Of a stretch of DNA of 41,516 nt, positions 5,161 to 40,724 are shown one piece after another. The position numbers and the translations under genes were made by a program. This stretch comes from Candidatus Binatia bacterium. GTDB lineage: Bacteria > Desulfobacterota > Binatia > Bin18. The first letter of the stretch is position 1. Each line of letters starts with the position of its first letter. Location of the stretch: assembly GCA_041487975.1 (NCBI GenBank), contig JBGPOI010000001.1, positions 1 to 41,516 on the forward strand, written 5' to 3'. Below the pieces are notes generated by a model, which saw nothing but the letters and a program-made list of their open reading frames with translations, was not told the origin of the DNA and searched no databases.

Positions 5161-6477
5161 ATGTCGGTGACCATGGACAAGATCGTCAACCTGTGCAAAC
5201 GGCGCGGGTTTGTTTTCCCCTCGAGCGAGATCTACGGCGGCTTTGCCAGCACTTGGGACTACGGTCCGCTCGGCATCGAACTCAAACGAAACATCCGCGA
5301 GACCTGGTGGCGCTACATGGTGACGGCACGCGAGAACGTCGTCGGCATCGAGAGTGCCGTGCTCATGCATCCGCGGGTGTGGGAGGCTTCAGGTCATATC
5401 GCTGGATTTTCTGATCCCTTGGTGGACTGCCGCGTTTGCAAACGGCGCTTTCGCGCTGACCAGATCCCTGCCAAGGAAGAACGGCAATGCCCCAAAGGCA
5501 TGGAGTGCGATCTGACCGAGGCCAGGCAGTTCAACCTGATGTTCAAAACCTTCGTTGGTCCAGTTGAGGAAGACGCAGCCGTAGCATTCCTCCGCCCCGA
5601 GACTGCGCAAGGTATGTTTGTGAACTTCCTCAACGTCCAGCAGTCCGGCCGCCTCAAACCGCCTTTCGGCATCGCGCAGATCGGCAAATCGTTTCGCAAC
5701 GAGATCACACCCGGCAACTTCATTTTCCGCACGCGCGAGTTCGAGCAGATGGAAATGGAGTTCTTCGTCAAACCCGGCACTGACGAGGAGTGGTTCGATT
5801 ATTGGCGCGAGCAGCGTATGAATTGGTACACCACACGGCTCGGTATCAAGCCTGCCAACCTCCGCTTTCATCACTACGAGAAGCCCGATCTTGCCCACTA
5901 CGCCAAGGCCTGCTCGGATATCGAATACCAGTATCCCTTCGGCTGGGGCGAACTCGAAGGCATTGCCAATCGTACTGACTTCGACCTGCGGCAGCATGCC
6001 GAGCACAGCGGCAAGGATCTGACTTTCTTCGATGAAGAGACGCGCGAACGTTATCTGCCGTATGTCATCGAGCCGGCAGTGGGGGTGGACCGCCTCCTGC
6101 TCATCATACTCCTCGATGCCTACGAGGAAGATGTACAGGAGAATGAGTCTCGCGTCGTCTTGCGCTTGCCTCCGCGTCTTGCTCCGATTAAAGTTGGGAT
6201 CTTTCCGCTCCTACGGAAAGACGGGCAGCCGGAGAAAGCTCTAGCGATCCGTGATCTCCTCAAGCAGCGATTCGCCGTTTTTTACGATCAGGCGGGTTCG
6301 ATCGGCCGGCGCTACCGCCGCCAGGACGAGGTCGGCACGCCGTTCGGCATCACCGTGGATCATCAAACTATGCAGGACGATACCGTGACCCTGCGCGACC
6401 GCGATTCTCTCCAACAGATCCGTTTACCGATCGACCGGCTGATTCCTGAGTTAATCAGTCGGATAGAACCGTTCTAG
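5161..6477 (+). CDS. glyQS: Glycine--tRNA ligase, dimeric class II (GlyQS type)
   Basis: N-terminus KIVNLCKRRGFVFPSSEIYGGFASTWDYGPLG and class II motif 2 (FRNEITPGNFIFRTREFEQMEMEFF). The 438-aa length fits the GlyQS type. Confidence 0.97.
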   Translation: MSVTMDKIVNLCKRRGFVFPSSEIYGGFASTWDYGPLGIELKRNIRETWWRYMVTARENVVGIESAVLMHPRVWEASGHIAGFSDPLVDCRVCKRRFRADQIPAKEERQCPKGMECDLTEARQFNLMFKTFVGPVEEDAAVAFLRPETAQGMFVNFLNVQQSGRLKPPFGIAQIGKSFRNEITPGNFIFRTREFEQMEMEFFVKPGTDEEWFDYWREQRMNWYTTRLGIKPANLRFHHYEKPDLAHYAKACSDIEYQYPFGWGELEGIANRTDFDLRQHAEHSGKDLTFFDEETRERYLPYVIEPAVGVDRLLLIILLDAYEEDVQENESRVVLRLPPRLAPIKVGIFPLLRKDGQPEKALAIRDLLKQRFAVFYDQAGSIGRRYRRQDEVGTPFGITVDHQTMQDDTVTLRDRDSLQQIRLPIDRLIPELISRIEPF

Positions 6478-7760
6478 AAGCTCCAGCGAAGCTCGGTATA
6501 AGCGGTAGAGTTGTCGTGTAGATTCTCAAAAAAGGACGGGCGCGGTCCACGGAAAATGTCGGCTCCGGCTACTATCTTCCATCGGTCAGTTAACGCATAG
6601 GTGACCTTGGGACGTAACGCGTAGCCACCGCGAGTGAATGCAAAAACCCCGACCACCTCTCCTTCAAGTGTCTCGTTCAACCATCTGTCACTGAGCCGGA
6701 GCGAGGCTCCATGCTGGGCTCGGTCCAACTGATTCGTTTGCACAGCCTGCTGGATCGCCACCCCCTGCTGCAGAGGATCCTGAAATCGGAAAGGACTCTG
6801 ATAATGGACCACCAGCCGGAAAATGTACTGAATATTAACATTCAGGTACTCAAAGAAAGTCCGGTCGCCGCCTAGGACCATGAAGAAGAACGGGTTCTTC
6901 ACAGCGGGATTGCCACCCCCGGTGTCTGTCGTGAAAGTGTAAGCAGCCTCTCCACGCAACCCGTAGCGGCCGAATGTGGTTGCAGTGTCGGCTCCGATCA
7001 CCCGGATACGATGGTTGCGCAGATGTAGGTCTACCCCGGCAGCGCCGATCCGGTCGATCCCCAGATCTGGAAAGGGATCAAAGCCGTCAAAGTATGAGGC
7101 AGACCAGTCAATCATACTCCCCGTTTGCTCAAGCTTGGCTGCCCACTGCTGCAAGGCTCTCTCCGGCGCTTGTTCATGCAGGGTGAACAGTGCAGGGGGC
7201 TGCTTGATCGGAATAGTGTCAGACTCGAAGGCAGGCAGCCACACGCCGGTCAGTGAGAGTCCTCCCAAGTAGTAGGTCGCCTTGACGGCTACCGTGCCCA
7301 GCCGCTGGTCGTCGTCCTCAGGAAAGAGCAAAGTAAAGTTTTTTGCCGTAAGATTGTCGGTTGGGTTAATCCGATCGGCCCGGCCCCAGACAATAAGCTG
7401 CTTGCCGACGCACAGGTCCACCGGCCCGAGGCTCACATCCAGATAGGCTTCCCGGAGTTCTCCGTTGGTCTCCCGCTCCCGAAAGAGTTCCTGGTTCATG
7501 ACCCACCCTTCGACGAAGAGCGTGGTTGTAGACCCGAGTCTTGACGTGGCCTTGAGCCAAAGAGAGGCGACAGCCCTGTGCTCGCGGTTGTCGAGGTCTC
7601 TGGAGGAACTCCAGTATCCTTCACGGAGAGACCCAGTCAGTTCTGTTCGCTGGGTCGCGTTTGCGAGCGAATCAATGAAATCGGGAAGCCCTGTGGCAAA
7701 AAGAGGTGTCGTCCCGAGCAGAATGGTCCAGGCACACACTCCCAGGGCAACGACCTTCAA
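6474..7760 (-). CDS. Outer-membrane beta-barrel protein, DUF1302/alginate-export-like
   Basis: Signal peptide (MKVVALGVCAWTILLGTTPLFATG), alternating beta-strand pattern, and a C-terminal aromatic residue (ELRWSF). The REAYLDV...GKQLIVWGRADRINPTDN motif is one I associate with DUF1302/alginate-export barrels. The TTG start overlaps the stop of the upstream transporter (TTGA, 7757-7760). Confidence 0.7.
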   Translation of the reverse strand: MKVVALGVCAWTILLGTTPLFATGLPDFIDSLANATQRTELTGSLREGYWSSSRDLDNREHRAVASLWLKATSRLGSTTTLFVEGWVMNQELFRERETNGELREAYLDVSLGPVDLCVGKQLIVWGRADRINPTDNLTAKNFTLLFPEDDDQRLGTVAVKATYYLGGLSLTGVWLPAFESDTIPIKQPPALFTLHEQAPERALQQWAAKLEQTGSMIDWSASYFDGFDPFPDLGIDRIGAAGVDLHLRNHRIRVIGADTATTFGRYGLRGEAAYTFTTDTGGGNPAVKNPFFFMVLGGDRTFFEYLNVNIQYIFRLVVHYQSPFRFQDPLQQGVAIQQAVQTNQLDRAQHGASLRLSDRWLNETLEGEVVGVFAFTRGGYALRPKVTYALTDRWKIVAGADIFRGPRPSFFENLHDNSTAYTELRWSF

Positions 7761-10700
7761 GGCTCTCGCTCCATGTAACGAGCTGTGAAGAACTCGTCTG
7801 GAATCTGTTGATTGACTTTGAAGTTCTCGAACTGGATGATGGTCCGGTGTCCCGTCTGGCTATTGGTAGCCTCCAAGCGCATCGGGCGCCATCTTCCCCT
7901 GTCAGGGTCAACAAGCTGGACATCCTCCCCTTTGCAGCTCTTGAGGGGCTGGCCAGCACGGTCCCAGAACTCTTCCTTGATTGTGACGAAGTTGTCCTTA
8001 CGGATCCAGGCGTTGTGCTTCGAGTAGCCGCTACTCGCCTTCACCGACTCATCTCGCGGGACGGACTCGATCACGTAGCACGGCTGACCATCCACCTCCT
8101 CTTCTCTCAGCAGAATATGCTGCCAGTCCTCGACCTTGTGGCCAATCACATCTCCATATGAGAAGTCCGTGCCAGCGAAGCTGTCTTTTTTGTTCGTGGC
8201 AACCAGCCGGCGGACTTTCTTGAGCGCCGGCAAATAGACCCAAATGTCATCGTCTTGGTCCGTATGCTCGATCGTGAGGATGGCTGTTCCTTTGACGTCG
8301 GGCGGAGAAAGGAACCGCACCATCTGCGTGTTATCCATGCCATTAGATTGGAGCTTTGAGACCGTCAGGGTCTTTCTCACCCGCTCCTGACCTGCCGTGT
8401 TGATTAAGGTGAAGGTGACGTCCGCAATGGAATCCAGGACCCGTGTGACGGCGAAGTTCTTCTCCATGATTTCCCTAGCCGTCGATGGATCTCCCCACGC
8501 TTCACCAGTTTGGCAAAGACCAAGCCCCAGGACGAAGAGGAAGGCCGTAGTGATTTCAGGAACGGTCGTGAGGCGTTGGCTGGCTGCTCCGAAAACGAAA
8601 CGAGGTCGCAGGGTGAGGATCAAGCTGGGCAGGATCGTCAGCGCCCCCAGGGAACTCACCAGCATGGCTGTTGCGATCAAGATCGCGAACCACATGTGAA
8701 TGTAGTACCCGTAGGAGAAGAGCAGCACCCCGTAGCCACCGGCTACCGCCGAGGCGACGAAGAGGATTGCCTTGCCGGCCGTGGTGAGGGCAGTATGGCA
8801 TGCCGTTCGTTCGTCCACGCCACGGCCTAGTTCTTCCCGAAGGCGATAGATGAGGTAGATGGCGTAGTCAGCTCCGATCCCCACCGCCATAGCGGAGATC
8901 AGAGAAGTCCCGATGTTCAACTGAATCCCAAGCAACCCCATGAGACCAAAATTGGCGAGCACGGCCAGTAGCAAGGGGACGAGCACGAGTAATCCCGCCA
9001 GAAGGGAGCGGAAAACCACCGAGGTAATGAACAGAATCACTCCACTGATTTGGATGATGTTGAGGATCTTCCCGTGAACCATCACTTCGTTGAGGGCGGC
9101 TGTTTGTGCCACGCTCCCGCCAATTCTGATCCGCATGTCATCACCGAACTGGGTCGGGAGAAAATCATCCAGCCTGGCGATCAACTCCTGGAGGAAAGTG
9201 CTGCTGTCGGTCTTAAGGAAGACCCAGATGTTAGCGGACTGGTAGGTGTAGTCCACATAGGAGTCAAAGTCCCCTGGCTCTCCAGAGAGGGAGTAGAGGA
9301 GCAGGTACTGGGAGATCAATTCCTGGCTCTCTGGTATCCGATCGTAGGATGGGTCATCGTTATGCATCGCCTGGTTCATCCGCTTGATGAAGTCTACCAG
9401 GGACAGGGTCTTCCCAACGTGAGCTTGTCGATTGAGGAACTGTTGGGTTGCTTCCATCGCCCGGAGGACCTGGGGGTCCTTAATCGCATCTCCCCGGGGT
9501 CCTTCGACCAGCAGGTACAGTGTATTAGTCCCACCGAGATGCTCGTTGAGTAGTCGGTCATCCTGCTGGAAGGAAAGGTGCTGAAAGAAGTAGCTCTTCA
9601 CGGAATTGTCCATTCTGACTCGCGTCAGCCCACTGCCCCAGAGCAAGAGTAAGCAGGCGACTCCCGCGTAAAGACGCCACCGGCTGGGGCCGGTCACCCA
9701 GCCGGCAATCGTCTCGGTGATCCGATCCCACACGCGCCGCTCGCGCTCGCGGCGGCTTTCTCTCTGTCCCGGCGCGGGGAGCAGAGACCGGAGCGCCGGA
9801 ATAAAAGTTATTTCTAAAATGAGGGCGCTCAGAATCCCCAGTCCAGTGAAAATACCGAACGTGCGAATGGTCGTGACCTCAAAGACGACCAGGGAAAGAA
9901 AGCCGAGTGCGGCGACGCTACCGGCTGTGAGCATCACCGGTCCGATCCGCGTCACCGACTCTACCACTGCAGCCCGGTTGGCCTCGGTTGGGGTGAGGGA
10001 TGTAGTCTCTCTGAGCCGATGGTATTCCTCGTAATAACGCTTGAGGATCTGTACCGCGTGGCCGGCCGCCACTGCGAGGATCAGGATCGGGGTCGTCCCG
10101 TTGAAAACATCCATGGGAACACCAGCGAGGCGCATGATCCCTAGCCCCCAGACGACCGCCAAGAGCGCGGTGACTAACGGGAGAATCAGCCCTTGGATCG
10201 TGCGGAAGGCTTCATAGTGGATCAGCCCCATGATCAGAACAGCGAGGACGAAGAGGATCGCCATCCGCTGGGAATATGCTTCGACCCGATCGAGGAAGAT
10301 CGGCAGACCGCCAAGAGCGATGTCTACGGAGGCATCACGTTCCCGCTCCACGAGGGGGCGGACCTTCTCCACCATACCCTGAAAGCCGCCCGCATCCTCT
10401 CTGAACTCGGCGAGGATGGCTGCCGTACGCTCATCTTTGGAGATAATCGTATTCACGTAGGCAGGGTTCGCGCGGACAGCCTGTCGCAGCGACTCGATCT
10501 CTGCCACTGTCTGCGGGACAGTCTCCATCAACGGCCGTACCTCGATACCGTCTGCCGTTCCCACGATGTTTTTGGCGCGCCGGGCGGCAAGGCTGAGGAT
10601 GTTCCCTTTCACCACGCCAGGAGTGTCGAGAATAGCTGTAGTCAGGCGCTGAATTTTGCTCAACACCGGCACACTGAAGGCATCGCCCTCCTTGGGGGTG

Positions 10701-10909
10701 ATGCCGATGATGATGACATACTTCGACCCGAATACCCGCTCGACCCAGTTTGTCGCTACGACATACGGGTGCTCTTGGGGGAGCATGGTGTTGGGGTCGA
10801 TAATGACCCGGAGGTGGGTGATTTGAAAGGCTAACACTCCCGTAATGAGTCCCGTGAGTCCAATGAGGAAGAACCTGTAGCGGAGAATTCCCTCTACGTA
10901 GCGCCTCAT
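7757..10909 (-). CDS. MMPL/RND-superfamily (lipid) transporter fused to an extra TM helix and a C-terminal periplasmic LolA-like domain
   Basis: 1050 aa. Shows a 2 x (1 TM + large loop + 5 TM) MMPL topology with GIGADYAIYL-type motifs. After TM12 comes another hydrophobic helix (EITTAFLFVLGLGLCQTGEAW). A 245-aa domain follows, with the DSFAGTDFSYGDV motif typical of the LolA_like 'outer membrane lipoprotein-sorting protein' family. Confidence 0.85.
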   Translation of the reverse strand: MRRYVEGILRYRFFLIGLTGLITGVLAFQITHLRVIIDPNTMLPQEHPYVVATNWVERVFGSKYVIIIGITPKEGDAFSVPVLSKIQRLTTAILDTPGVVKGNILSLAARRAKNIVGTADGIEVRPLMETVPQTVAEIESLRQAVRANPAYVNTIISKDERTAAILAEFREDAGGFQGMVEKVRPLVERERDASVDIALGGLPIFLDRVEAYSQRMAILFVLAVLIMGLIHYEAFRTIQGLILPLVTALLAVVWGLGIMRLAGVPMDVFNGTTPILILAVAAGHAVQILKRYYEEYHRLRETTSLTPTEANRAAVVESVTRIGPVMLTAGSVAALGFLSLVVFEVTTIRTFGIFTGLGILSALILEITFIPALRSLLPAPGQRESRRERERRVWDRITETIAGWVTGPSRWRLYAGVACLLLLWGSGLTRVRMDNSVKSYFFQHLSFQQDDRLLNEHLGGTNTLYLLVEGPRGDAIKDPQVLRAMEATQQFLNRQAHVGKTLSLVDFIKRMNQAMHNDDPSYDRIPESQELISQYLLLYSLSGEPGDFDSYVDYTYQSANIWVFLKTDSSTFLQELIARLDDFLPTQFGDDMRIRIGGSVAQTAALNEVMVHGKILNIIQISGVILFITSVVFRSLLAGLLVLVPLLLAVLANFGLMGLLGIQLNIGTSLISAMAVGIGADYAIYLIYRLREELGRGVDERTACHTALTTAGKAILFVASAVAGGYGVLLFSYGYYIHMWFAILIATAMLVSSLGALTILPSLILTLRPRFVFGAASQRLTTVPEITTAFLFVLGLGLCQTGEAWGDPSTAREIMEKNFAVTRVLDSIADVTFTLINTAGQERVRKTLTVSKLQSNGMDNTQMVRFLSPPDVKGTAILTIEHTDQDDDIWVYLPALKKVRRLVATNKKDSFAGTDFSYGDVIGHKVEDWQHILLREEEVDGQPCYVIESVPRDESVKASSGYSKHNAWIRKDNFVTIKEEFWDRAGQPLKSCKGEDVQLVDPDRGRWRPMRLEATNSQTGHRTIIQFENFKVNQQIPDEFFTARYMEREP

Positions 10910-10915
10910 AGCGAC

Positions 10916-10937
10916 CGTCCTTGTCGCCGTAAGGACG
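10916..10937 (-). promoter_or_regulatory. Hairpin that sequesters the Shine-Dalgarno of the MMPL gene
   Basis: The minus-strand RNA reads CGUCCUU-ACGGCGAC-AAGGACG-GUCGCU-AUG. The only SD-like sequence (AAGGA, 8 nt before the ATG) forms the 3' arm of a 7-bp stem. Confidence 0.35.
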
Positions 10938-11064
10938 CGAGTGCCTGCCTGACCTTGCTTTTTCCTGCAGGCCAGAGACGAACAAAAAGAGAGAGATTAT
11001 TAACGTATAGTGACGCTGTGATCTCGCACGGTCGCATACGGAGATGACTCATCCAGACGCCTCT

Positions 11065-12198
11065 TCAACGGGGCTTCACCACTTGGGGGATGGTAACGGC
11101 CAGGCGTTCGGCCAACATGTGCGAGAGGTTCAGCAGTACCTTTGCAGCAACGGTAGGCTCCTGGGCAATGACTCGATTGAGGAATTCGCCCGAAAGCACG
11201 ATCATCTCGCACGGCGCTTTAGCCACCACATTGGCAGTACGTGGCTTCGCCGTAAAGAAGCTGATCTCGCCGAAGGTATCACCAGCGCCCAGGACCGCCA
11301 GGGGATGGTCGGGTACTTCGGCCAGCACCACTTCCGCAATGCCCGACAGGAGCACAAACACCGCGTTGCCCTGCTCACCCTGCCTCACAATATGATCGCC
11401 CGGCTCCGCCTTGATGAGAGTGGCCTTCGCGAGAAACCGTTCGGCTTCCACGCGGTCGAGACCGTATAACAGCCGCAAACCGTGCAACGGGTCGGTCGCA
11501 ACACGATCGCACAGCATGTCGAAGAACACCCCTTCTGGAAGGAAGGATGCCGTCTCGAAGGCCAGATACTCAGGGTAGGCGCGCTCAAACCATGCCCGTA
11601 CCTCTGGGTCATCGGGATAGCGCGTCGCAACCCGCAGCAGAGGTGACCGGACTCGCTCGAACCGTTGCCGGTCCCGCACGAGCATCAGAATCAAGATCTT
11701 GAAGCCATAGGTAGTGTCATTGTACGCCTGTCTGTAGCGCCGGTAGCCCATATGCTCGTAGAACGGGAGCAGATGCGGGCTGCAATCGCCGTAATTTAGC
11801 CGGACACCACGAGCCATCGCCTCCTCGTATGCAGTCTCCATCAACCGAAGGATCGCCGTGCCGTGACGAAGCCGAGGATGGAGGATGAACCGGCTCGTCG
11901 TGCCAATGGCGGAGCGACCCAGCGCCTCGATCGCCAGCTCCAGCCCGAACTTTTCGACAAGGGGCGTGGGATCGGGCACATCGTCGAGGACTGTGGTCCG
12001 CAGAGACCCCACCACCTCTCCCTCATCGAGGAGAGCATGGGAGACGCTTACGTCATCGAGCGGGTCCCAGAGCCGCTTGCGCGTGTGGTCTGCCTCAGGC
12101 GGCGAAAGCCCTAATTCTTCAACGTAGGCACGATAACGGAAAGCGAAGATTTTCTCCCGCTCCCCTTCCGAACGCCCTGGTGCAACGGTCAATCCCAT
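11065..12198 (-). CDS. GNAT-fold N-acyltransferase (LuxI/FeeM/OlsB-like N-acyl amino acid synthase family) fused to a C-terminal cyclic-nucleotide-binding domain
   Basis: The N-terminal half (EREKIFAFRYRAYVEELGL...WDPLDDVSVSHALLDEGEVVGSLRTT...PFYEHMGYRRY) resembles N-acyl amino acid synthase/autoinducer-synthase-like GNATs. The C-terminal half is a canonical cNMP-binding beta-barrel (GDHIVRQGEQGNAVFVLLSG...GDTFGEISFFTAKPRTANVVA), with the FGE and R-T-A phosphate-binding cassette. Confidence 0.75.
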   Translation of the reverse strand: MGLTVAPGRSEGEREKIFAFRYRAYVEELGLSPPEADHTRKRLWDPLDDVSVSHALLDEGEVVGSLRTTVLDDVPDPTPLVEKFGLELAIEALGRSAIGTTSRFILHPRLRHGTAILRLMETAYEEAMARGVRLNYGDCSPHLLPFYEHMGYRRYRQAYNDTTYGFKILILMLVRDRQRFERVRSPLLRVATRYPDDPEVRAWFERAYPEYLAFETASFLPEGVFFDMLCDRVATDPLHGLRLLYGLDRVEAERFLAKATLIKAEPGDHIVRQGEQGNAVFVLLSGIAEVVLAEVPDHPLAVLGAGDTFGEISFFTAKPRTANVVAKAPCEMIVLSGEFLNRVIAQEPTVAAKVLLNLSHMLAERLAVTIPQVVKPR

Positions 12199-12848
12199 CG
12201 TTGTTGTTCCTCGCCGATTTCCCGGAACATCCGCGTGTATAGGTCGGCCACCACGTCGGCCACGTGGGAGACCGCCATGCAGTCCTCGTCTCGCCGGACA
12301 TACTTCTGGATGCAGTGTGTCATATCCTTCGTGTGATCCACGTCGCTGTCGCCGTGGCGCGCTACGAAGCGCACCCCCTTCCCCGAGAGTCCCGTTACTG
12401 TTTTAAGCTGCTTGGCGACGAGCGCCCCAAGGTCACTGCCCACTACCTCAAGCACATACATCCACCCGAACAGCCCTACAGGGTTCGCGTATCCCGCGAC
12501 GTAGTGCATATAGCCGATCATGGCCTCACACGCCGGAACCGGACGCGCTGCTCGGACCTGCGCCTCGCTCACGTTCAGGTCGCGTAAGTCCTCAAGTGCC
12601 CAAAGGTCATGTCCATGCTCCTCGTCGGCGTGGTGCAGGAGATAGGTCGCGAGTTCCGGGTGTGTGCCCATGCACCGTGCCGCGGCCAGGGCCATGACCT
12701 TTGGGCTGTGCTGCGCATAGTTATAAGCATTGATGAGGTATCGGACATATGCGCTCGGCTCAACGGTCCCGGCAAAGAGAGCTTTGGTGATTTTGGTATC
12801 AGTCAGCTCTGTGATGACCCGCTTACGAACTTCGAGCAGATGTTCCAT
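12189..12848 (-). CDS. Heme-oxygenase-like diiron oxidase / iron-containing redox enzyme family protein (CADD/PqqC/TenA-like fold)
   Basis: The ORF track gives 12189..13040. I prefer ATG 12848 (MEHLLEV), preceded by GGGGAGGAG. The product is a 219-aa all-helical protein. Candidate metal ligands are E65-x6-H72, E134 and H165-x3-D169-x2-H172. Its stop overlaps the downstream acyltransferase start by 10 nt (ATGGGATTGA). Confidence 0.7.
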   Translation of the reverse strand: MEHLLEVRKRVITELTDTKITKALFAGTVEPSAYVRYLINAYNYAQHSPKVMALAAARCMGTHPELATYLLHHADEEHGHDLWALEDLRDLNVSEAQVRAARPVPACEAMIGYMHYVAGYANPVGLFGWMYVLEVVGSDLGALVAKQLKTVTGLSGKGVRFVARHGDSDVDHTKDMTHCIQKYVRRDEDCMAVSHVADVVADLYTRMFREIGEEQQRWD

Positions 12849-13148
12849 GTTTACTCCTCCCCAGATGATGCCGATAGTGAACGCGATGGGAAATCTTCGG
12901 AAAAGCGACAGCAATATACTAAATACTAACGAACGCCGCGATGTGCCATATGCAAATGGAAGAGGGTCGGCAGATGTCTGAGAGCAAGCTGGCTGTTTTT
13001 CGGCCTCGTGCAGGGGGCTTCGCAAATCCAGTCCGTTCATTTATGAATGGGTCGCGAGGCAGCGGGTTTTTTCCTCTGACGTACTTCTGCTACCCTGACT
13101 GCAATATTGGGGAGAATTTTTGAGAAGGAGATATTCAGCACGAGACCT

Positions 13149-17004: not shown

Positions 17005-17194
17005 CAACGCCTCACGCCCTATAGAACTGACGAGAGCCAGCACGTCTAGCAGCCCGAAGAAGGATAGTCTAAATTTAGCTGGTGATCTGCCGATTCCAAG
17101 GTAGGACCTTGAAAAGGGTCCTGGGATAACCTGCCTGGGAAAAACTCTCACGAGTTTTAGCTGACTGAGTGTAGTGAAAGGAGAAACAGCCCGC

Positions 17195-18889
17195 ATGTCT
17201 ACTCGCCTGGGTGAGTTGCTAGTGCGCAAGGGGTACATCACTCCTGAGCAGTTACGCAAAGCGATCGAAGAACAGCGGGTACATGGAGGACCTCTCAATG
17301 AGCATTTGGTCAAGCTCGGGTGTTTCACCGAAGACGTCCTGCTCGCCTATTTGCAAAGAGAGTATCGCCTGTCTACCGCCGATCCCGCTAATTTGGAAAT
17401 CTCTGGCGAAGTCATTCAGTTAGTTCCGCATGCGCTGGTAACGAAGTATCACCTGATCCCAATCTCTCTGAACGGCTCCAGCCTGACTCTTGCCATGGCT
17501 GATCCCTCTAATATGGTCGCCGTGGACGAAGTCAAGTTTCTCACTGGGGCTGACATCAAGATCGTTCTGGCGACGAGTTCCTCCATCAAACGGGCAGTTG
17601 AACGGTTCTATGACCGAGCCATGAAGTACGATCACGTGCTCAATGACCTGAGGGGCCAGGAGGTGGAGGTCGTCCGGGATCAAGGCGAAATTGATCTTCA
17701 GGAGTTGGAGCGGGCCACCGAGGACGCACCGGTTGTCCGACTGGTAAACGCTATTTTCACCGATGCGCTGCGGAAGCGGGCGAGCGACATTCACATCGAG
17801 CCCTATGAGCAGATCTTTCGGGTGCGCTTTCGTATTGACGGGGTGCTGTCCGAGATCCTGCAGCCGCCGCTCGCGCTCAAGGCCGCCGTGGTTTCGCGCC
17901 TCAAGGTCATGGCTTCCCTTGATATTGCCGAGCGCCGCTTGCCCCAGGATGGTCGCATCAAGATCAAATTGGGCCCAGCTGATGCGATGGATATCCGCGT
18001 CTCTGTATTGCCCACCTTGTTCGGCGAAAAGATCGTCATGCGTCTTCTCGACAAATCCCAGTTGCAAACCGATATGCTGAAGCTGGGATTTGAAGAACAG
18101 GCGCTCAAGGACTTTAAGGAAGGGATTTATAGACCCTATGGGATGGTGTTGGTCACCGGCCCCACGGGGTCTGGGAAGACCACAACATTGTACTCAGCTC
18201 TGTCCGAACTGAATAAGATTACCACGAACATCTCGACTGCCGAGGATCCGGTGGAATTCAACCTTCCCGGTATCAATCAGGTCCTGGTCAATGAAGACAT
18301 CGGTTTGACGTTCGCCGCCGCTCTCCGCGCTTTCCTGCGCCAGGATCCGGACATCATCATGGTGGGCGAGATCCGCGACCGCGAGACCGCTGAGATCGGC
18401 GTCAAAGCGGCGCTCACCGGCCATTTGGTCCTCTCTACCGTACACACGAACGATGCCCCTTCCACGATCAACCGGCTACTCAACATGGGGGTCGCACCCT
18501 TTCTCGTCGCCTCCTCAGTCAACCTGATTGTGGCTCAGCGTCTTGCCCGGAGAATCTGCTCCAGGTGTAAGGTCGATCAGCCGATCACGCCCCAAGCGCT
18601 GCTCGATCTGGGGGTGCCTCCGGAAGAGACGAAGACGTATGATTGCAAGCATGGTCTTGGCTGCCCTGATTGTGGAGGCTCCGGTTATCGTGGCCGCGTG
18701 GCTCTCTACGAGGTCATGCCGCTGTATGAAGAGATCCGAGAACTGGTGCTCTCTGGCGCCTCAACCCCGGAAATTAAACGCGCGGCCATGAGCCGGGGAG
18801 TGAAGACGCTACGCCAGAGTGGGCTCAGCAAAGTGCGCGAGGGCGTTACCACCCTTGAAGAGGTGATGCGAGTGACGATGGCTGATTAG
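17195..18889 (+). CDS. pilB: Type IV pilus assembly ATPase PilB (GspE family) with an MshEN-type N-terminal domain
   Basis: Walker A (GPTGSGKTTT), Walker B/Asp box (DPDIIMVGEIRD), His box (TGHLVLSTVHTNDA) and a tetracysteine motif (CSRCK...CPDCGGSG). The N-terminus is RLGELLVRKGYITPEQLRKAIEEQ. AAAGGAGA RBS before ATG 17195. Confidence 0.95.
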   Translation: MSTRLGELLVRKGYITPEQLRKAIEEQRVHGGPLNEHLVKLGCFTEDVLLAYLQREYRLSTADPANLEISGEVIQLVPHALVTKYHLIPISLNGSSLTLAMADPSNMVAVDEVKFLTGADIKIVLATSSSIKRAVERFYDRAMKYDHVLNDLRGQEVEVVRDQGEIDLQELERATEDAPVVRLVNAIFTDALRKRASDIHIEPYEQIFRVRFRIDGVLSEILQPPLALKAAVVSRLKVMASLDIAERRLPQDGRIKIKLGPADAMDIRVSVLPTLFGEKIVMRLLDKSQLQTDMLKLGFEEQALKDFKEGIYRPYGMVLVTGPTGSGKTTTLYSALSELNKITTNISTAEDPVEFNLPGINQVLVNEDIGLTFAAALRAFLRQDPDIIMVGEIRDRETAEIGVKAALTGHLVLSTVHTNDAPSTINRLLNMGVAPFLVASSVNLIVAQRLARRICSRCKVDQPITPQALLDLGVPPEETKTYDCKHGLGCPDCGGSGYRGRVALYEVMPLYEEIRELVLSGASTPEIKRAAMSRGVKTLRQSGLSKVREGVTTLEEVMRVTMAD

Positions 18890-18927
18890 TGCTCTGTCAA
18901 CATGATTTTGATACATCCACTACCGTC

Positions 18928-18993
18928 ATGCCCGCGCAGGCGGGCATCCGGAAACCCTGCCCCGTCGCCCTGGATTCCCGCTTTCGCGGGAAT
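18928..18993. repeat. Two short perfect hairpin modules (A: ATGCCCGC-gcag-GCGGGCAT; B: ATTCCCGC-tttc-GCGGGAAT)
   Basis: Module A is at 18928-18947 and module B at 18974-18993. Both recur inverted and in swapped order at 22688-22731. Confidence 0.85.
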
Positions 18994-19032
18994 GACGCAG
19001 CAACTGCCTATGAATGTGTCTCAATCCCGCCC

Positions 19033-19106
19033 GTAGGGGCGAATCTTGTATTCGCCCTGCTGCTGGCGGCCTGTGTGTGCTGGGCGATCACAAGGATCGC
19101 CCCTAC
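19033..19106. repeat. REPIN-like inverted doublet of GTAG-headed palindromic units
   Basis: GTAGGGGCGAAT-cttgt-ATTCGCCC (19033-19057) faces GGGCGATC-acaag-GATCGCCCCTAC (19082-19106). Confidence 0.8.
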
Positions 19107-19229
19107 AAGCGTACCACCCAAGGGACACGTGCAATTGAAATCTGCTGTAGTATCCCCTAAAGGTCAGGGATGCGCCTGCCGATATAATACGAGCAGTAGA
19201 ACGTCATCACAATATCTTGAGGCAAGAGC

Positions 19230-20450
19230 ATGGCGATCTTTCGTTGGCAAGGGATCGGTTCCCGCGGAGAAACGATTCAAGGAGAGATGGAGGCGACTAC
19301 GCGTGAGGCGGTGATCTCGCGTCTGCGGAATCAGCGTATCAGGGCGCTCCCAGATCGTATCCGTGAAAAAGGCAAAGGATTCGACAGGGAGATCAAGATC
19401 CCGGGATTCGGCGAGAAAGTCAAGCCGAAGGACGTCATGATCTTCACCCGCCAGCTTGCCACCATGATCGATGCCGGCCTGCCCATCGTGCAGGGACTCG
19501 ATATCCTTGCCCAGCAGACCCCTAACAAAACGTTCGCCAAGATCATCAGACAGGTCAAACAAGACGTGGAAAGCGGCTCGACATTCGCGGAATCCTTGAA
19601 GAAGCATCCCAAGGTGTTCGACGACTTGTACACCAACATGGTAGCCGCTGGAGAGGCCGGCGGAATCCTCGATAACATCCTGACCCGTCTGACCCAGTAC
19701 ATAGAAAAGTCCGTCAAGCTGAAGTCCAAGATCAAGGGGGCCATGATCTACCCCGCCAGCATCGTCATCGTGGCTGTAGGAGTAACCGCCATTTTGCTCA
19801 TCTACGTGATCCCGGTCTTTGCCGACATGTTCTCCAGCTTCGGCAAGGCGCTACCCCTACCCACACAAATTGCCATCAATCTCAGCTATATCACGATCGC
19901 TTATTTTCATTATATTATCGCCGCGGCGATCAGTGCTGTCTTCGGCCTACGGATGAGCTATCGTACCGAGAAAGGTCGGTTTGCCATCGATGGCATGATA
20001 CTCAAGCTCCCCATCTTCGGCGACCTTTTTCGCAAGACCGCGGTGGCACGCTTCACGCGCACTCTCAGCACTTTGCTCTCGTCCGGGGTGCCGGTACTCG
20101 ACGCCCTCCTCATTACTGGCAGAACGGCCGGCAACAAAGTGGTCGAGAAGGCGGTATTTGATGCGCGTCAGAGCATCAGTGAAGGGAAGACTCTCTCTAC
20201 CCCTCTCGCGGAAAGTCGGATATTCCCTTCGATGGTGTGCCAAATGATCAACGTCGGCGAGACCACCGGCGCGCTTGACTCCATGCTCATCAAGATCGCC
20301 GACTTCTATGACGAAGAGGTGGACAACGCCGTCGCCAATCTTACCGCCTTGATGGAACCAGTGGTGATAGTATTCCTCGGTGTTGTTATTGGTGGCCTGG
20401 TGATTTCGATGTACTTGCCGATCTTCAAACTCGGCTCCGTCCTGTCATAA
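19230..20450 (+). CDS. pilC: Type IV pilus inner-membrane platform protein PilC (GspF family)
   Basis: Two GspF repeats (AAGEAGGILDNIL and VGETTGALDSML) and three TM segments; 406 aa. Confidence 0.95.
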   Translation: MAIFRWQGIGSRGETIQGEMEATTREAVISRLRNQRIRALPDRIREKGKGFDREIKIPGFGEKVKPKDVMIFTRQLATMIDAGLPIVQGLDILAQQTPNKTFAKIIRQVKQDVESGSTFAESLKKHPKVFDDLYTNMVAAGEAGGILDNILTRLTQYIEKSVKLKSKIKGAMIYPASIVIVAVGVTAILLIYVIPVFADMFSSFGKALPLPTQIAINLSYITIAYFHYIIAAAISAVFGLRMSYRTEKGRFAIDGMILKLPIFGDLFRKTAVARFTRTLSTLLSSGVPVLDALLITGRTAGNKVVEKAVFDARQSISEGKTLSTPLAESRIFPSMVCQMINVGETTGALDSMLIKIADFYDEEVDNAVANLTALMEPVVIVFLGVVIGGLVISMYLPIFKLGSVLS

Positions 20451-20459
20451 GGAACCGTT

Positions 20460-22472
20460 ATGCTGGAAGCTGAGAACGACTTGCGTCGGCGGTTGGAGTG
20501 GTTCCTGCTGCTGCGAGTAGGGATCACGACGGGCCTGCTCGGCACGTCAGTTTGGCTCTATTACTACTCGTTCGGCGGGGTTGACACGTCGTCCGGCAGG
20601 GTCGTGCTGAGCGCGATCGCCGTCATCTACTTCATCTCTTTGTCATCCGCCCTTCTCCTTTCCCGGGTGCGCGATCTGACGCTGTTCGCGTACGGGCAGG
20701 TCGTCCTCGACACCTTGTTTATTACCGGCATTGTGCTGCTCACGGGCGGGCTCGATAGTCCCTTCTCCTTTTTTTACAACCTGTCCATCCTGAACGCCGC
20801 GTTCCTGTTGTACCGGCATGGCGCGCTGGTGGCCGCGTCTTTGGCCGCTCTCTGTTACGGGGGCACTATCGATCTCCTGTATTATCGGATCCTCCCGCCC
20901 ACGGGATTCATGCCGCTCTCATTCCTGGGTACGAGTTCTGCTCCCAATATGCAGCTCACTATCAGATTGGTGGTGAATTTATCCTCGTTCTATGTCATCG
21001 CGTTCCTCGGCAGTTACCTCACACAGCGGCTCTCAAAGGCTGAAACCCTGCTCGCCGAACGGGATGTGGCGCTCGGCCGTCTCTCCTCGCTCTATCAAGG
21101 TGTGATAAAAACCCTGGATAAGGGTGTCTTGATCGCCGATGCCAACGGCATCATCGAATATGCCAACGGCTCTATAGCGGAGATCGTCGGCTCTACGCCG
21201 AGCGCACTGACCGGGCAACTGGTGGACGACATTCTCCCTGAACTGGATCTGAGCCAACCCAGCTATACACCGCTCGAGTTTACCTTCCAGAGAGAGGACA
21301 GCAACACTGAACGAACCTTGCGCGCTACTCTTTCACCCCTGAACGACACCTACGGCAACCGCTTTGGCGCGCTGTACAGCGTGCAGGACGTGACCAGCGT
21401 CAAGGAGATGGAACGCGGCTTGCGAGAAGCCGAAGAACTGGAACGCGCGACCGTCCTGGAAGGACCGGTGGAACTCGACTCGTTCGCCGGTCTGATCGGG
21501 CGAAGCGAGGCCATGCGTAAGGTGTATCGGGTTATCACCAAGGTTGCTGAATGCACCACCACCGTGCTGATCACCGGTGAGAGCGGTACGGGCAAAGAGC
21601 TGGTCGCGCGCGCGATCCACGACAAAGGTCCACGCGCCGCGCGCCCCTTTGTGCCGGTCAACTGCGGCGCCATCCCGGCTGCTTTAATGGAGAGCGAGAT
21701 ATTCGGTCATGTCAAAGGCGCCTTCACCGGCGCGGTGAGTGACCGGACCGGACTGTTTCGTCAAGCCGATGGCGGCACCTTGTTTCTCGACGAGGTCGGC
21801 GAACTGCCGTTGACGCTCCAGGTCAAACTCCTGCGTGTGTTGCAAGATCATGAGGTCGTCCCGGTCGGCGGGAGCAAGGGAGCCCGGGTGGATGTCCGCG
21901 TGCTGGCGGCAACCAATAAAAACCTGGAAAAGGAAGTCGCCGCCGGGCGCTTCCGCGAGGATCTCTTTTACCGTCTCAATGTCATTCGTATTGCCTTGCC
22001 GCCGCTGCGTGAGCGCGAGGGCGACCTCCCCCTTTTACTCCGTCAGCTCATCAACCGTTTTGCCGAAGCGAACGGCAAGATCATCGACAAGATCTCGCCG
22101 TTGGCCATGCGCGCGCTCCTCGACTACCCCTACCCCGGCAACATCCGCGAGTTGGAAAACGTGATCCAACTGGCTGTGACGATGGCGGAAGCAGAGACGA
22201 TTCAGCTCGCTGACCTGCCTGCCCGTCTGCAGCAAGACTCGGCTCAGTTCCGTCCTGATTTGTCTGTTGCCGGGAGCCCGCAAAGTCAAAGCGCCGATCC
22301 CGACTTCTTCAGCAAAGGGGTCAGCCTCGATGCCGAACTAGAGGCCTACGAGCAGAACATTCTGCGCGCAGCCCTGGAAAAATCCGGCGGGATCCAGAAA
22401 AAGGCGGCCGAGTTCCTCGGCATCAACTACCGCTCATTGCGACACCGCCTGCAGAAATACAACCTCTCCTGA
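20460..22472 (+). CDS. Membrane-anchored sigma54-dependent activator: PilS-like 6-TM sensor + PAS + AAA+ (GAFTGA) + Fis-type HTH, with no HisKA/HATPase and no receiver domain
   Basis: Residues 1-200 contain six hydrophobic helices. A PAS-like segment follows (GVLIADANGIIEYANGSIAEIVG). The sigma54-interaction domain has GESGTGKELVARAIH, ESEIFGHVKGAFTGA and GGTLFLDEVGEL. The C-terminal HTH reads KKAAEFLGINYRSLRHRLQKY. The gene occupies the pilS-pilR position between pilC and the pilin genes. Confidence 0.85.
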   Translation: MLEAENDLRRRLEWFLLLRVGITTGLLGTSVWLYYYSFGGVDTSSGRVVLSAIAVIYFISLSSALLLSRVRDLTLFAYGQVVLDTLFITGIVLLTGGLDSPFSFFYNLSILNAAFLLYRHGALVAASLAALCYGGTIDLLYYRILPPTGFMPLSFLGTSSAPNMQLTIRLVVNLSSFYVIAFLGSYLTQRLSKAETLLAERDVALGRLSSLYQGVIKTLDKGVLIADANGIIEYANGSIAEIVGSTPSALTGQLVDDILPELDLSQPSYTPLEFTFQREDSNTERTLRATLSPLNDTYGNRFGALYSVQDVTSVKEMERGLREAEELERATVLEGPVELDSFAGLIGRSEAMRKVYRVITKVAECTTTVLITGESGTGKELVARAIHDKGPRAARPFVPVNCGAIPAALMESEIFGHVKGAFTGAVSDRTGLFRQADGGTLFLDEVGELPLTLQVKLLRVLQDHEVVPVGGSKGARVDVRVLAATNKNLEKEVAAGRFREDLFYRLNVIRIALPPLREREGDLPLLLRQLINRFAEANGKIIDKISPLAMRALLDYPYPGNIRELENVIQLAVTMAEAETIQLADLPARLQQDSAQFRPDLSVAGSPQSQSADPDFFSKGVSLDAELEAYEQNILRAALEKSGGIQKKAAEFLGINYRSLRHRLQKYNLS

Positions 22473-22504
22473 AGGCCTTACCTGGCGGTACAGCTCCTCA
22501 AACG

Positions 22505-22524
22505 CTCGGCGATCAATCGCCGAG
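22505..22524 (+). terminator. Hairpin after the activator gene (weak terminator candidate)
   Basis: CTCGGCGA-tcaa-TCGCCGAG, a perfect 8-bp stem 32 nt after the stop. No U-tract follows. Confidence 0.3.
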
Positions 22525-22600
22525 CTACACAACAGCGCTCTCTTAGAGCAGTTTGCAATTGCGTCTACCCTATCAGCAGGCACTGGCGTCGACCCTGGTG

Positions 22601-22642
22601 GCGCAGGCCGCTGGCCTGCGTGCGCAGCCGAGCCGGTTGCGC
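22601..22642. repeat. Hairpin modules D (GCGCAGGCC-gct-GGCCTGCG) and E (GCGCAGCCG-agc-CGGTTGCGC)
   Basis: The two modules are adjacent here and recur at 24263-24331 in the order E...D. Confidence 0.85.
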
Positions 22643-22687
22643 CACTACAGCTTCACGGAGAGAACCCAGCTTCCCCTTTCCCCTGAA

Positions 22688-22731
22688 TGCCCGCCTGCGC
22701 GGGCAGACGTCATTCCCGCGAAAGCGGGAAT
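22688..22731. repeat. Second copies of hairpin modules A and B
   Basis: TGCCCGC-ctgc-GCGGGCA (22688-22705) and ATTCCCGC-gaaa-GCGGGAAT (22712-22731). Both loops are reverse complements of the 18928-18993 copies. Confidence 0.85.
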
Positions 22732-22739
22732 CTAGAGCC

Positions 22740-22788
22740 GTAGGGGCACATGGCCAGTGGAAAAGCCAGGCCGAAGCCATGCCCCTAC
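22740..22788. repeat. REPIN-like inverted doublet
   Basis: GTAGGGGCACATGGC ... GCCATGCCCCTAC, with GTAGGGG/CCCCTAC heads on the outside. Confidence 0.75.
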
Positions 22789-22861
22789 CTGGCATGCACA
22801 GAAAATAGCAGCGTGCAGGGGAGACGTGCGCACAGCGCACGCTACGCTTCTTGTGGGTGCC

Positions 22862-22969
22862 GTTTTGTAGGGGCTTGATTCATCAAGCCCTTTGGCGGGT
22901 CCGATGAATCGGACCCCTACACCTTCCGGAACGCGAATCCCTGTGCTGGAGTCAAACTGAACCACTACC
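22862..22969. repeat. 108-bp repeat, left copy (IR-L), containing a GTAGGGG...CCCCTAC doublet (22867-22920)
   Basis: My by-eye alignment to the reverse complement of 25774-25881 gives 101/108 identical positions, with the first 60 nt identical. Confidence 0.9.
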
Positions 22970-23031
22970 AGGAAGGCAGAGGCGCTGACTCTTGCCAAAC
23001 CGTCAAAGGATTAACAGCCAGGGACCGTAAT

Positions 23032-23084
23032 TTGTCATCATGGACGTTTCCGGCTCGTACGACAAAATTTTGCTCCGTTGTCAT
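23032..23084 (+). promoter_or_regulatory. Candidate enhancer (UAS) for the sigma54 activator: repeated TTGTCAT / TGTC motifs
   Basis: TTGTCAT occurs at 23032-23038 and 23078-23084, and GACA at 23061-23064. These lie 70-120 nt upstream of the -24/-12 promoter. An A/T-rich tract (23101-23150) follows and could bend DNA (IHF-like AATCATTTAATTT). Confidence 0.3.
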
Positions 23085-23151
23085 ATTCAGTTAAGCTGTT
23101 GAAATCATTTAATTTTCATCTTTTTTTCTGCGAGCGAAAAATTTTCCACTT

Positions 23152-23167
23152 TGGCACGCGCATTGCT
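23152..23167 (+). promoter_or_regulatory. sigma54 (-24/-12) promoter for the pilin genes
   Basis: TGGCAC-gcgca-TTGCT matches the TGGCAC-N5-TTGC(A/T) consensus exactly. It lies about 165 nt upstream of the pilin ATG. Confidence 0.8.
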
Positions 23168-23329
23168 CTTTCATCTGGCCAACAAAACCGACTTCCAGCG
23201 CGGCAACGCGCAAGCAAAATAAAGAAGAAAAGGAGGAAGCAGACCTCAAAAAAGAGCACGGTCGAGACGGGCACCAGTCGGCAACGAGGCGTATCCCCTT
23301 AACCCTAACCCTTGAAGGAGGAACATCGC

Positions 23330-23698
23330 ATGATTCGTAAGAATGAAAAAGGTTTCACCCTGATTGAGCTACTGGTCGTGATCGCCATCATCGGCATCCT
23401 GGCCGCCATCGCTATTCCGCAGTTCGCTGCGTATCGTAACACCGCGTTTTGTTCTCGACTCGAGTCCGACGTCACCAACGCCATGATCGCGGCAGAAGGC
23501 TACTATGCCCAGAATCAAACGTACCCGGCTGATACCACGGCGGCCAACTTCACCCCGAGTGGCACAGGAACAGAACAAAACTCAATCTCATTTGATGTGG
23601 GTCCCCCCTTTAAGGTCACTGGGACTGACGGTAGCGCAAATTGTCCCAAGGGCACTACCCTCACGTTTGCACAGGGCGGGTCACCAACGTATCCATAG
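23330..23698 (+). CDS. pilA: Type IVa pilin (probable major pilin)
   Basis: Class III signal MIRKNEKG|FTLIELLVVIAIIGILAAIAIPQF with Glu at mature position 5. GAAGGAGGA RBS 7 nt before ATG 23330. Two Cys residues in the globular part. Confidence 0.93.
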   Translation: MIRKNEKGFTLIELLVVIAIIGILAAIAIPQFAAYRNTAFCSRLESDVTNAMIAAEGYYAQNQTYPADTTAANFTPSGTGTEQNSISFDVGPPFKVTGTDGSANCPKGTTLTFAQGGSPTYP

Positions 23699-23749
23699 TC
23701 TTCTTGCACCCATTCAGCAGCCGGTATGGTTCTTATCGTGTTAAGGCTA

Positions 23750-23777
23750 CCCACCGGGCCGAGAGAGGCCCGGTGGG
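23750..23777 (+). terminator. Hairpin between the two pilin genes (terminator/attenuator)
   Basis: CCCACCGGGCC-gagaga-GGCCCGGTGGG, a perfect 11-bp GC-rich stem, followed by CTATTCTT. Confidence 0.6.
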
Positions 23778-23803
23778 CTATTCTTAAGGAAAAAGAAAAG
23801 AAG

Positions 23804-29992: not shown

Positions 29993-30004
29993 GCCGCAAA
30001 GGGT

Positions 30005-31683: not shown

Positions 31684-31706
31684 TGTCACTCTCCTTCCCC
31701 CTTTAC

Positions 31707-40647: not shown

Positions 40648-40724
40648 GATGCCTTCCTCCTCTTGGTGGAGAGGCTGGCCTTTATCCGGGTTCACACTGG
40701 CACGGCCTGCCCTCTCCGGGCGAC

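Follow-up and report, generated by a model that had tools for sequence, protein, structure and literature searches.

A four-gene block in a Binatia contig

The DNA analysed here, called the window below, is a 41,516-nt stretch of Candidatus Binatia bacterium (contig JBGPOI010000001.1 of GenBank assembly GCA_041487975.1, positions 1 to 41,516 of the forward strand). Our subject is a block of four consecutive minus-strand genes within it. From upstream to downstream these encode a heme-oxygenase-like diiron oxidase (HDO), an acyltransferase of the GNAT superfamily fused to a cyclic nucleoside monophosphate (cNMP)-binding (CNB) domain, a membrane pump fused to a LolA-like domain, and a candidate outer-membrane β-barrel (Table 1). 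We refer to the first two genes as the cassette and to the last two as the transporter set.

An earlier note, made from the letters of this DNA alone, had described the four genes as two translationally coupled pairs. This layout can be read directly from the sequence. The open reading frames (ORFs) lie at 6474-7760, 7757-10909, 11065-12198 and 12189-13040; the HDO and GNAT genes overlap by the 10 nt ATGGGATTGA at 12189-12198, the pump and barrel genes overlap by TTGA at 7757-7760, and the gap between the pairs measures 155 nt, as had been claimed. The HDO gene starts at the ATG at 12848 and not at the ORF end at 13040: the Shine-Dalgarno sequence GGAGGAG stands just 5' of this ATG, and HDO orthologues open with MEHLL at the matching position. 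The end coordinate of 12848 proposed earlier is therefore right. Profile searches also bore out the domain assignments, with every proposed domain clearing Pfam's own cut-off.

Two elements that had been placed in the gap, a degenerate palindromic-repeat remnant and a hairpin that sequesters a Shine-Dalgarno sequence, are not supported. We found no inverted repeat of at least 8 nt there, and the predicted fold of the gap does not surpass that of shuffled sequence (z = -0.52; 59 of 200 shuffles equal it). Promoter and terminator consensus sequences are likewise absent from 10910-11064. In alignments with three and then five related gaps, neither the gap sequence nor its GTCCTT/AAGGAC stem was conserved in the closest relatives.

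Table 1. Coordinates of the genes, domains and sites of the four-gene block.
Feature	Position	Strand	Evidence or remark
HDO, 219 aa	12189-12848	-	Pfam Haem_oxygenas_2 2e-17
HDO, H73-H80 stretch	12609-12632	-	
HDO, E134	12447-12449	-	
HDO, H165/D169/H172	12333-12356	-	
GNAT::CNB whole gene, 377 aa	11065-12198	-	ATG overlaps HDO stop within ATGGGATTGA
FeeM/LuxI-like GNAT domain, residues 1-185 of the 377-aa protein	11644-12198	-	Pfam FeeM 9.4e-12, Acetyltransf_5
cNMP-binding domain, residues ~240-370	11089-11481	-	Pfam cNMP_binding 2.3e-19
Phosphate-binding cassette GDTFGE...PRTA	11233-11283	-	
Intergenic gap, 155 nt, without recognisable element	10910-11064	-	Fold, repeat and promoter/terminator scans
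HAE3/MMPL-type RND pump core, residues 1-768, two MMPL halves	8606-10909	-	Pfam MMPL 2.6e-48, two stretches
Extra hydrophobic segment ITTAFLFVLGLGL, residues 786-798	8516-8554	-	Comparison with split operons, hydropathy
LolA-like domain fused to the pump, residues 860-1048	7766-8332	-	Pfam LolA_like 1.2e-61, DUF1329 5e-8
Outer-membrane β-barrel candidate, 428 aa, short DUF1302 relative	6474-7760	-	TTG start overlaps pump TGA

The oxidase and the acyltransferase form a conserved cassette

Around 250 relatives share 55-80% identity with the 377-aa GNAT::CNB protein, and nearly all are metagenomic. Scanning one genome per species, we recovered 28 genome loci, distributed over more than ten lineages, among them Deltaproteobacteria/Binatia, Methylomirabilia, Planctomycetota, Nitrospirales, Alpha-, Beta- and Gammaproteobacteria, Acidobacteria and Holophagae. 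The HDO gene lies directly upstream of the GNAT gene in every one of the 28. In 25 of 31 loci the two genes share 10, 4 or 1 nt where stop meets start, and in four more these codons are no more than 30 nt apart; the overlap is therefore not a chance feature of the window. Such overlapping translation suggests that the two proteins are produced stoichiometrically and perhaps act as a complex. Nothing else is conserved with the pair, since no Pfam family occurs more than three times among 91 flanking ORFs; specifically, none of these ORFs provides a transporter, a cyclase, a LuxR protein or an acyl carrier protein (ACP) as a conserved third gene.

The pairing extends well beyond the fused architecture. 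A profile search restricted to the GNAT domain finds stand-alone GNATs that carry no cNMP domain, and at 48-52% identity these again follow an HDO (loci L112 and L113). At 32-37% identity the two genes still occur together, in reversed order (L116, L117 and L118). GNAT and HDO diverge in step, with partner identities falling together from 50/52 through 48/49 and 31/37 to 29/33%. A split version (L115) encodes the GNAT and a 122-aa CNB protein in separate adjacent genes, and in L121 (3231-5527) a GNAT::cNMP protein with an extra DinB_2 domain (549 aa) still follows an HDO; upstream of the L121 cassette are genes for a TetR-family protein and a DUF5996 protein. Because the pairing is kept where the CNB domain is missing or split off, the core of the cassette is GNAT plus HDO, and the cNMP sensor is a frequent yet optional regulatory add-on.

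Some distant relatives include further enzymes. In L116 (5001-6987) and L118 (1247-3214) a membrane methyltransferase of the PEMT/ICMT family lies between or after the GNAT and HDO genes, with the genes overlapping. This insertion, found in relatives at 33-37% identity, hints that the product resides in the membrane and can be methylated. Genes for AMP-binding and PP-binding proteins adjoin one distant relative.

The cassette also appears among mobile elements. In L112 (Mesorhizobium sp. M1300, GCA_040318165.1, 1-6666) it lies by a phage-type integrase, AlpA, HTH_17 and an N6/N4 DNA methyltransferase, and in L117 (3407-5889) beside IS66 genes, which together suggest that the cassette is horizontally mobile. 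Only two loci come from named organisms, one from the Mesorhizobium genome assembly and one from a Brasilonema bromeliae assembly, where the contig has low coverage; nearly all others are from uncultured bacteria. In a metagenome-assembled genome labelled Kerfeldbacteria (L027, 10001-12900) the cassette genes and the MMPL gene that follows them are frameshifted, probably through long-read assembly errors, and the taxonomic labels of this bin and of L002 ('Enterobacteriaceae') look doubtful.

All parts of the block come from known families. As far as the searched literature shows, however, the pairing of a GNAT with an HDO and the fusion of a FeeM-like synthase to a cNMP-binding domain are undescribed: we found no paper on an HDO combined with a synthase of N-acyl amino acids (NAS), or on a FeeM protein combined with a cNMP-binding domain. 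The earlier claim that no characterised system combines these components agrees with this outcome.

Active-site features of the oxidase

The window HDO scores 64 bits against Haem_oxygenas_2, for which the Pfam cut-off is 28.9. Its closest solved structure is 3DDE, a protein of unknown function (1.4e-22 over residues 15-216), followed by the acetylenase MboA (9e-6), and its identity to any solved member is at most about 30%. Eight residues, H73, E76, E77, H80, E134, H165, D169 and H172, are invariant across 20 orthologues. Among them, E77 and H80 on helix 1, E134, and the H165/D169/H172 group are candidate metal ligands, amounting to three histidines and three carboxylates, and the pattern (ExxH; E; HxxxDxxH) recurs in the distant HDO partners. 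The HDOs are defined by a 3His/3carboxylate ligand set carried on three core helices (PMC13108848). On the strength of this set and of the heme-oxygenase-like profile, both held in common with UndA, BesC, SznF, MboA and 3DDE, the window protein belongs to the diiron HDO class, and Fe/O2 activity is predicted for it.

Known HDO substrates are fatty acids and amino acids, and reactions have been assigned to no more than about a dozen of these enzymes (PMC13108848). Like other HDOs, the window enzyme has a small biosynthetic gene context (PMC13108848, PMC13185094); unlike them, it is accompanied by a FeeM-like GNAT and not by an ATP-grasp ligase, a nonribosomal peptide synthetase or a redox partner. 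New HDO chemistry has mostly come to light by way of conserved gene partners, as with MboA (PMC13185094). The cassette is a lead for such chemistry and for second-messenger control of lipid or signal synthesis, being a fixed two-enzyme unit with a clear partner and small enough to express.

Distant HDO relatives (25-31% identity) occur in a second recurring cassette, which comprises a T_hemolysin protein (PF12261), an AMP-binding enzyme, the HDO, an SDR protein and a TPR protein and adjoins a two-component system (L109, Pseudoalteromonas sp. CF6-2; L111, Variovorax boronicumulans). In the Pseudoalteromonas locus the AMP-binding enzyme is fused to the HDO. BLASTP detected no similarity between the T_hemolysin protein and the window GNAT, and our literature search returned no relevant paper on 3DDE or on this second cassette. 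On the Xylella plasmid pXF-CO33 (L110) an HDO stands alongside a DUF3419 protein, an Asp/Asn beta-hydroxylase and a GNAT.

A FeeM-like acyltransferase joined to a cyclic-nucleotide-binding domain

The N-terminal half of the 377-aa protein matches the FeeM family (PF21926) at 45.4 bits over residues 17-171 (cut-off 27) and Acetyltransf_5 (PF13444) at 25.3 bits (cut-off 22.4), and 37 columns of the GNAT alignment are invariant. A Foldseek search with the full-length AlphaFold2 (AF2) model was swamped by CNB matches, and the GNAT domain was therefore searched alone. Its model (pLDDT 76) has a GNAT fold; BjaI gave the top TM-score (0.60) and TofI the top identity (28%). By family profile the domain is a FeeM-type GNAT, and N-acylation of a small amine is its predicted activity.

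With the FeeM-type N-acyl amino acid synthases the window protein shares both profiles and a GNAT fold that may be related to LuxI; it differs from them by the added C-terminal cNMP-binding domain. Known NAS clusters are likewise small and include a tailoring enzyme (PMC7293339, PMC11631085), but in the window system an obligatory HDO partner replaces the known or proposed tailoring enzymes. Nor does the window offer the context of the exosortase-associated synthases: there is no exosortase context, and the corresponding model TIGR03694 reaches 19 bits against a cut-off of 112.

The C-terminal half scores 69.6 bits against cNMP_binding (PF00027) and resembles the CNB domains of PKG, PKA and SthK, with matches up to 1e-21. 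Within its phosphate-binding cassette, G306, D307, F309, E311 and A322 are invariant; the Glu is present in 18 of 18 sequences and the Arg of PRTA in 16 of 18. In profile and phosphate-binding cassette this is a CNB domain of the CAP/PKA type, which is predicted to bind a cNMP. The FeeM::CNB architecture is common, an exhaustive HMMER search having found about 290 clusters (50% identity) at E <= 1e-30; a plasmid search with the GNAT::CNB protein returned CNB-domain matches only.

From the intact binding motif we infer, by analogy with Pat, that cNMP binding would gate acyl transfer. Pat (Rv0998/MSMEG_5458), in which a cNMP-binding domain is also fused to a GNAT, sets a precedent, acyl transfer there being under the allosteric control of cAMP (PMC5861322). 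If cNMP binding does control acyl transfer in the window protein, cAMP or cGMP signalling would be linked directly to lipid or signal biosynthesis, with no transcription factor in between.

A compact transporter set, probably of HAE3 type, with a fused LolA-like domain

The pump matches Pfam MMPL in two stretches (165 bits) and the NCBIfam HAE3 model TIGR00921 at 242 bits, below the 352-bit cut-off of that model. Its hydropathy fits a 12-span RND core with one extra hydrophobic segment, and the domain fused to it scores 208 bits against LolA_like. The MMPL family and a sterol-sensing-type domain are common to this pump, HpnN and MmpL3, but neither identity can be assigned: the pump falls far below the equivalog cut-offs for HpnN (TIGR03480, 78 against 752 bits; NF052374, 27 against 1100) and for MmpL3 (27 bits against 1400). 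The barrel candidate has a signal-peptide-like N-terminus and ends in ...ELRWSF. DUF1302 matches it partially (31 bits, 48 residues) and is matched by 16 of 17 members of the barrel family, at best with 4.6e-12; a solved-structure search with the barrel profile gave no match.

A metagenome scan with the 1050-aa pump::LolA-like protein yielded 80 loci. Almost without exception, full-length loci have a barrel gene after the pump and LolA-like genes, down to identities of 41%. Most loci at or below 50% identity consist of three genes with 4-nt overlaps, encoding a pump of ~800 aa, a LolA-like protein of ~265 aa and a barrel of ~430 aa. Pump and LolA-like protein are fused in the window clade and a few others (1050-1116 aa) and separate in most relatives, for example L077, L078, L089 and L093.

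The separate LolA-like proteins of the split operons have their own signal peptide, and a comparison of these operons with the window shows how the fusion is built. In the split operons the pump ends with ...KPRFVFG..., and the product of the next gene opens with a signal peptide, after which comes DIMEKNF; in the window protein the order is RPRFVFG, a hydrophobic segment and EIMEKNF. Judged from this alignment, ITTAFLFVLGLGL is a former signal peptide that was retained after gene fusion as a predicted 13th membrane span, and the LolA-like domain would therefore be periplasmic. The fusion is a natural 'Rosetta stone', suggesting that the two proteins work together, and it backs the idea that HAE3 pumps pass substrates to LolA-like carriers and DUF1302-type barrels.

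A comparable set has been described in Castellaniella defragrans, where AmeABCD joins an HAE3 pump to a DUF1302 protein of the outer membrane and a LolA-like protein of the DUF1329 family and confers monoterpene tolerance; its deletion raised net Nile Red influx (PMC6394551). Related DUF1302/DUF1329/BNR/RND genes of Pseudomonas are needed on fatty esters (bioRxiv 10.1101/2020.07.04.188060). The window set resembles both in its make-up, with an RND pump probably of the HAE3 family, a periplasmic member of the LolA superfamily and an outer-membrane protein of the DUF1302 type; both have been linked to hydrophobic compounds (PMC6394551; bioRxiv 10.1101/2020.07.04.188060). It departs from AmeABCD in that its LolA-like part, of the PF17131 type, is joined to the pump by way of the retained signal peptide, its barrel measures ~430 aa as against ~600 aa, and no gene for AmeC (COG4447/BNR-like) is found in the block, in its flanks or in the conserved three-gene sets of related loci. 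The transporter half is accordingly a compact variant of a described kind and, by analogy, may move hydrophobic molecules across the envelope. The role of HAE3/LolA-like/DUF1302 systems is still debated (PMC6394551; bioRxiv 10.1101/2020.07.04.188060), and HpnN reportedly functions with no dedicated partner in the periplasm or the outer membrane (PMC6394551).

Cassette and transporter set are linked in a single lineage

The earlier note had presented the four genes as one module, to be checked by the conservation of their neighbourhood. That view holds in part. The note would have counted it as refuted had the pairs never occurred together in related genomes. The two pairs do co-occur, in about nine loci that all belong to one GNAT clade, but the arrangement is not general across relatives, and elsewhere each pair is a separate, autonomous conserved unit. 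Among 22 genome loci with at least 3 kb of sequence downstream of the GNAT gene, the transporter set follows in 2, an unrelated MMPL fragment in 1 and neither in 19. Seen from the other side, 53 transporter loci extend 1.9 kb or more upstream; 5 of these have the cassette, in addition to one partial locus.

All transporter-linked loci fall into a single clade of the GNAT tree, which also holds one contig that ends early and one locus (L003) without a transporter. Within this clade the four genes are adjacent and co-oriented at GNAT identities down to ~69%, and the genes flanking them differ (compare the window, L001, L029, L031 and L004/L042); the four genes have thus been kept together beyond general synteny. 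The spacer between the two modules measures 69-171 nt in the other quartet loci and is unconserved, and the genes on its two sides never overlap. A different, unrelated MMPL gene follows the cassette in L027.

We conclude that the four-gene module is real and lineage-specific: two autonomous modules became neighbours in one lineage. In our reading the linkage arose once and has been maintained in this lineage, which is compatible with product export, and it is not part of the definition of the cassette. Since modules that are otherwise autonomous co-occur in this one clade, a functional link between cassette and transporter set is plausible there on genomic grounds.

A proposed pathway for an oxidatively tailored N-acyl product

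Taking the modules together, we propose that the block specifies a cNMP-controlled, N-acylating and O2-tailoring cassette and an envelope transporter that probably exports its product in this clade; we regard the chances for and against this joint reading as evenly balanced. The GNAT would transfer an acyl group, probably a fatty acyl group from acyl-ACP or acyl-CoA, to the amino group of an amino acid or amine, a proposal that draws on its family membership and on the PEMT/ICMT and transporter partners. The translationally coupled HDO, with its complete ligand set, would use O2 to oxidise the acylated product or its precursor. Possible outcomes are an N-acyl dehydro-amino acid formed by desaturation, an enamide formed by oxidative decarboxylation and a hydroxamate-type lipid formed by N-oxygenation, and these three kinds of reaction lie within known HDO chemistry (PMC13108848). 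N-acyl dehydrotyrosines exist in nature, although their desaturation step has not been established experimentally (PMC7293339). Binding of cAMP or cGMP to the C-terminal CNB domain may gate the acyl transfer, as in the Pat analogy.

The amphiphile formed in this way could be extracted by the pump, passed to the tethered LolA-like domain and released through the barrel. We hold this export step, from pump through LolA-like domain to barrel, with less than even confidence as the fate of the cassette product in this clade, while considering it a serious possibility. About as tentative is the wider picture that the cassette is a widespread mobile pathway to a new class of oxidatively modified lipids or signals of the N-acyl amine or N-acyl amino-acid kind, whose synthesis is switched by cyclic nucleotides and which the Binatia-like clade exports to the outer membrane or the medium by a dedicated HAE3::LolA-like/barrel route. 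If true, the synthase would be the first small-molecule acyltransferase known to be gated by a second messenger, and the HDO would catalyse a new reaction.

Several observations pull the other way. The two modules are always split by the unconserved gap of 69-171 nt; 19 of the 22 cassette loci have no nearby transporter; and the transporter set mostly stands beside other genes, for instance those for acyl-CoA dehydrogenases together with a P450 and an FMN reductase, or for ABC-2 transporters. As for cNMP control, a cyclase is neither present in the window nor enriched near the cassette. In the broader family a FeeM::CNB protein (P0341) occurs without an HDO neighbour. As for the acylation chemistry, generic GNATs match the domain model in Foldseek with E-values at the level of BjaI and TofI or better, FeeM is absent from the top 50, and the Glu of the TofI WELSRF stretch is Thr in the window GNAT. 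No member has yet been assigned a product, a substrate or an activity.

A rival reading makes the modules mere neighbours: a mobile two-gene cassette would have settled beside a general-purpose hydrophobe transporter with a different task, for example taking up or expelling hydrophobic substrates or handling lipid traffic at the outer membrane, while the cassette product would stay in the cell or membrane or exit otherwise. We take this alternative seriously, while doubting it somewhat. It draws support from the autonomy of each module, from the integrase/AlpA island in Mesorhizobium and the IS66 genes of L117 beside the cassette, from the unrelated genes that the transporter set joins elsewhere, from the unconserved spacer that is never bridged by overlapping genes, and from L003, which belongs to the linked clade yet has no transporter; the window also contains hopanoid genes and a second DUF1329 gene. 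It accounts less well for the loci, about nine in number and with differing flanks, that keep the four genes adjacent and co-oriented down to a GNAT identity of ~69%, and for the unrelated MMPL gene that follows the pair in L027. Nor does anything tie the pump to hopanoids, the HpnN models being far from matched and the squalene-hopene cyclase gene (shc) lying 19 kb off.

Alternative roles of the acyltransferase

A LuxI-like signal synthase would use S-adenosylmethionine or a similar acceptor to make an autoinducer of the N-acyl-homoserine lactone (AHL) type, which the HDO would modify under cNMP gating. Among solved structures the best sequence match of the GNAT is indeed the AHL synthase TofI (3P2F/3P2H; E = 0.016), and, as noted above, TofI and BjaI (5W8C) lead by identity and TM-score. 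RYR, D45, D48, R67 and S102-R103-F104 are common to the GNAT and TofI and are conserved, and some JGI annotations name relatives of the window protein AHL synthetases. Set against this, Autoind_synth (PF00765) has no match to the window protein at E <= 0.01, whereas FeeM clears its cut-off, and only one of the 120 relatives listed carries Autoind_synth. The Trp of the TofI LGW stretch is replaced by Leu, and the Glu replaced by Thr in the WELSRF stretch is regarded as catalytically important in LuxI-type synthases. A LuxR-type partner is not enriched among the 91 neighbouring ORFs, and there is none in the window. We therefore regard a LuxI-type synthase as unlikely and favour a FeeM-type N-acyltransferase.

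In mycobacterial Pat, cAMP allosterically controls acyl transfer, and the GNAT::CNB protein could in principle be a cAMP-regulated protein acyl- or acetyltransferase of this kind (compare Rv0998) with the HDO or other proteins as its targets. In favour of this, a GNAT joined to a cNMP-binding domain recalls Pat, and the NCBIfam Pat model NF058543 matches at 3.4e-7. That match, however, covers the CNB domain only (residues 258-355) and reaches 29 bits against a cut-off of 460, so the likeness to Pat is limited to this domain. The domain order is the reverse of that in Pat, Pat belongs to another GNAT subfamily and acts on protein substrates, and the window GNAT probably belongs to the FeeM/LuxI branch. 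Moreover, stand-alone GNATs keep the HDO partner, and the PEMT/ICMT partners point to small hydrophobic substrates. A Pat-like function is very improbable in our judgement.

Least probable of all is an anti-phage or stress effector in which a cyclic nucleotide made elsewhere (Pycsar/CBASS) triggers a toxic metabolite: the likeness that PADLOC finds to CNB domains from Pycsar effectors (PycTIR 2e-15) and the patchy, island-associated distribution of the cassette would suit it, but these matches are confined to the CNB domain, no cyclase is adjacent at any locus, and the window cassette sits among housekeeping genes.

Other genes of the window

Genes for a glycyl-tRNA synthetase-like protein, recO and grpE-dnaK-dnaJ flank the block on one side, and pyruvate phosphate dikinase, aroE and type IV pilus genes on the other. 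Rfam and tRNA scans of the window returned no matches.

A hopanoid/isoprenoid run occupies 29009-33668 on the minus strand, ~19 kb from the MMPL pump. It contains a gene of the squalene/phytoene synthase family (29009-29992), 1-deoxy-D-xylulose 5-phosphate (DXP) reductoisomerase (30005-31234) and squalene-hopene cyclase (31707-33668). A second gene of the LolA superfamily, a stand-alone DUF1329 gene (3e-39), lies on the plus strand at 36760-38022 and is adjoined by two minus-strand family III CoA-transferase genes (38195-39397 and 39499-40695).

The type IV pilus cluster (17174-24151) encodes, among others, a PilB-like ATPase and PilC. Its stretch at 22.5-23.3 kb has no convincing ORF. The cluster further includes a fusion gene (20460-22472) that joins a PilS-like membrane domain, a PAS domain and a sigma-54 activator, and two tandem pilin genes (23312-23698 and 23726-24151) with the motif GFTLIELLVV.

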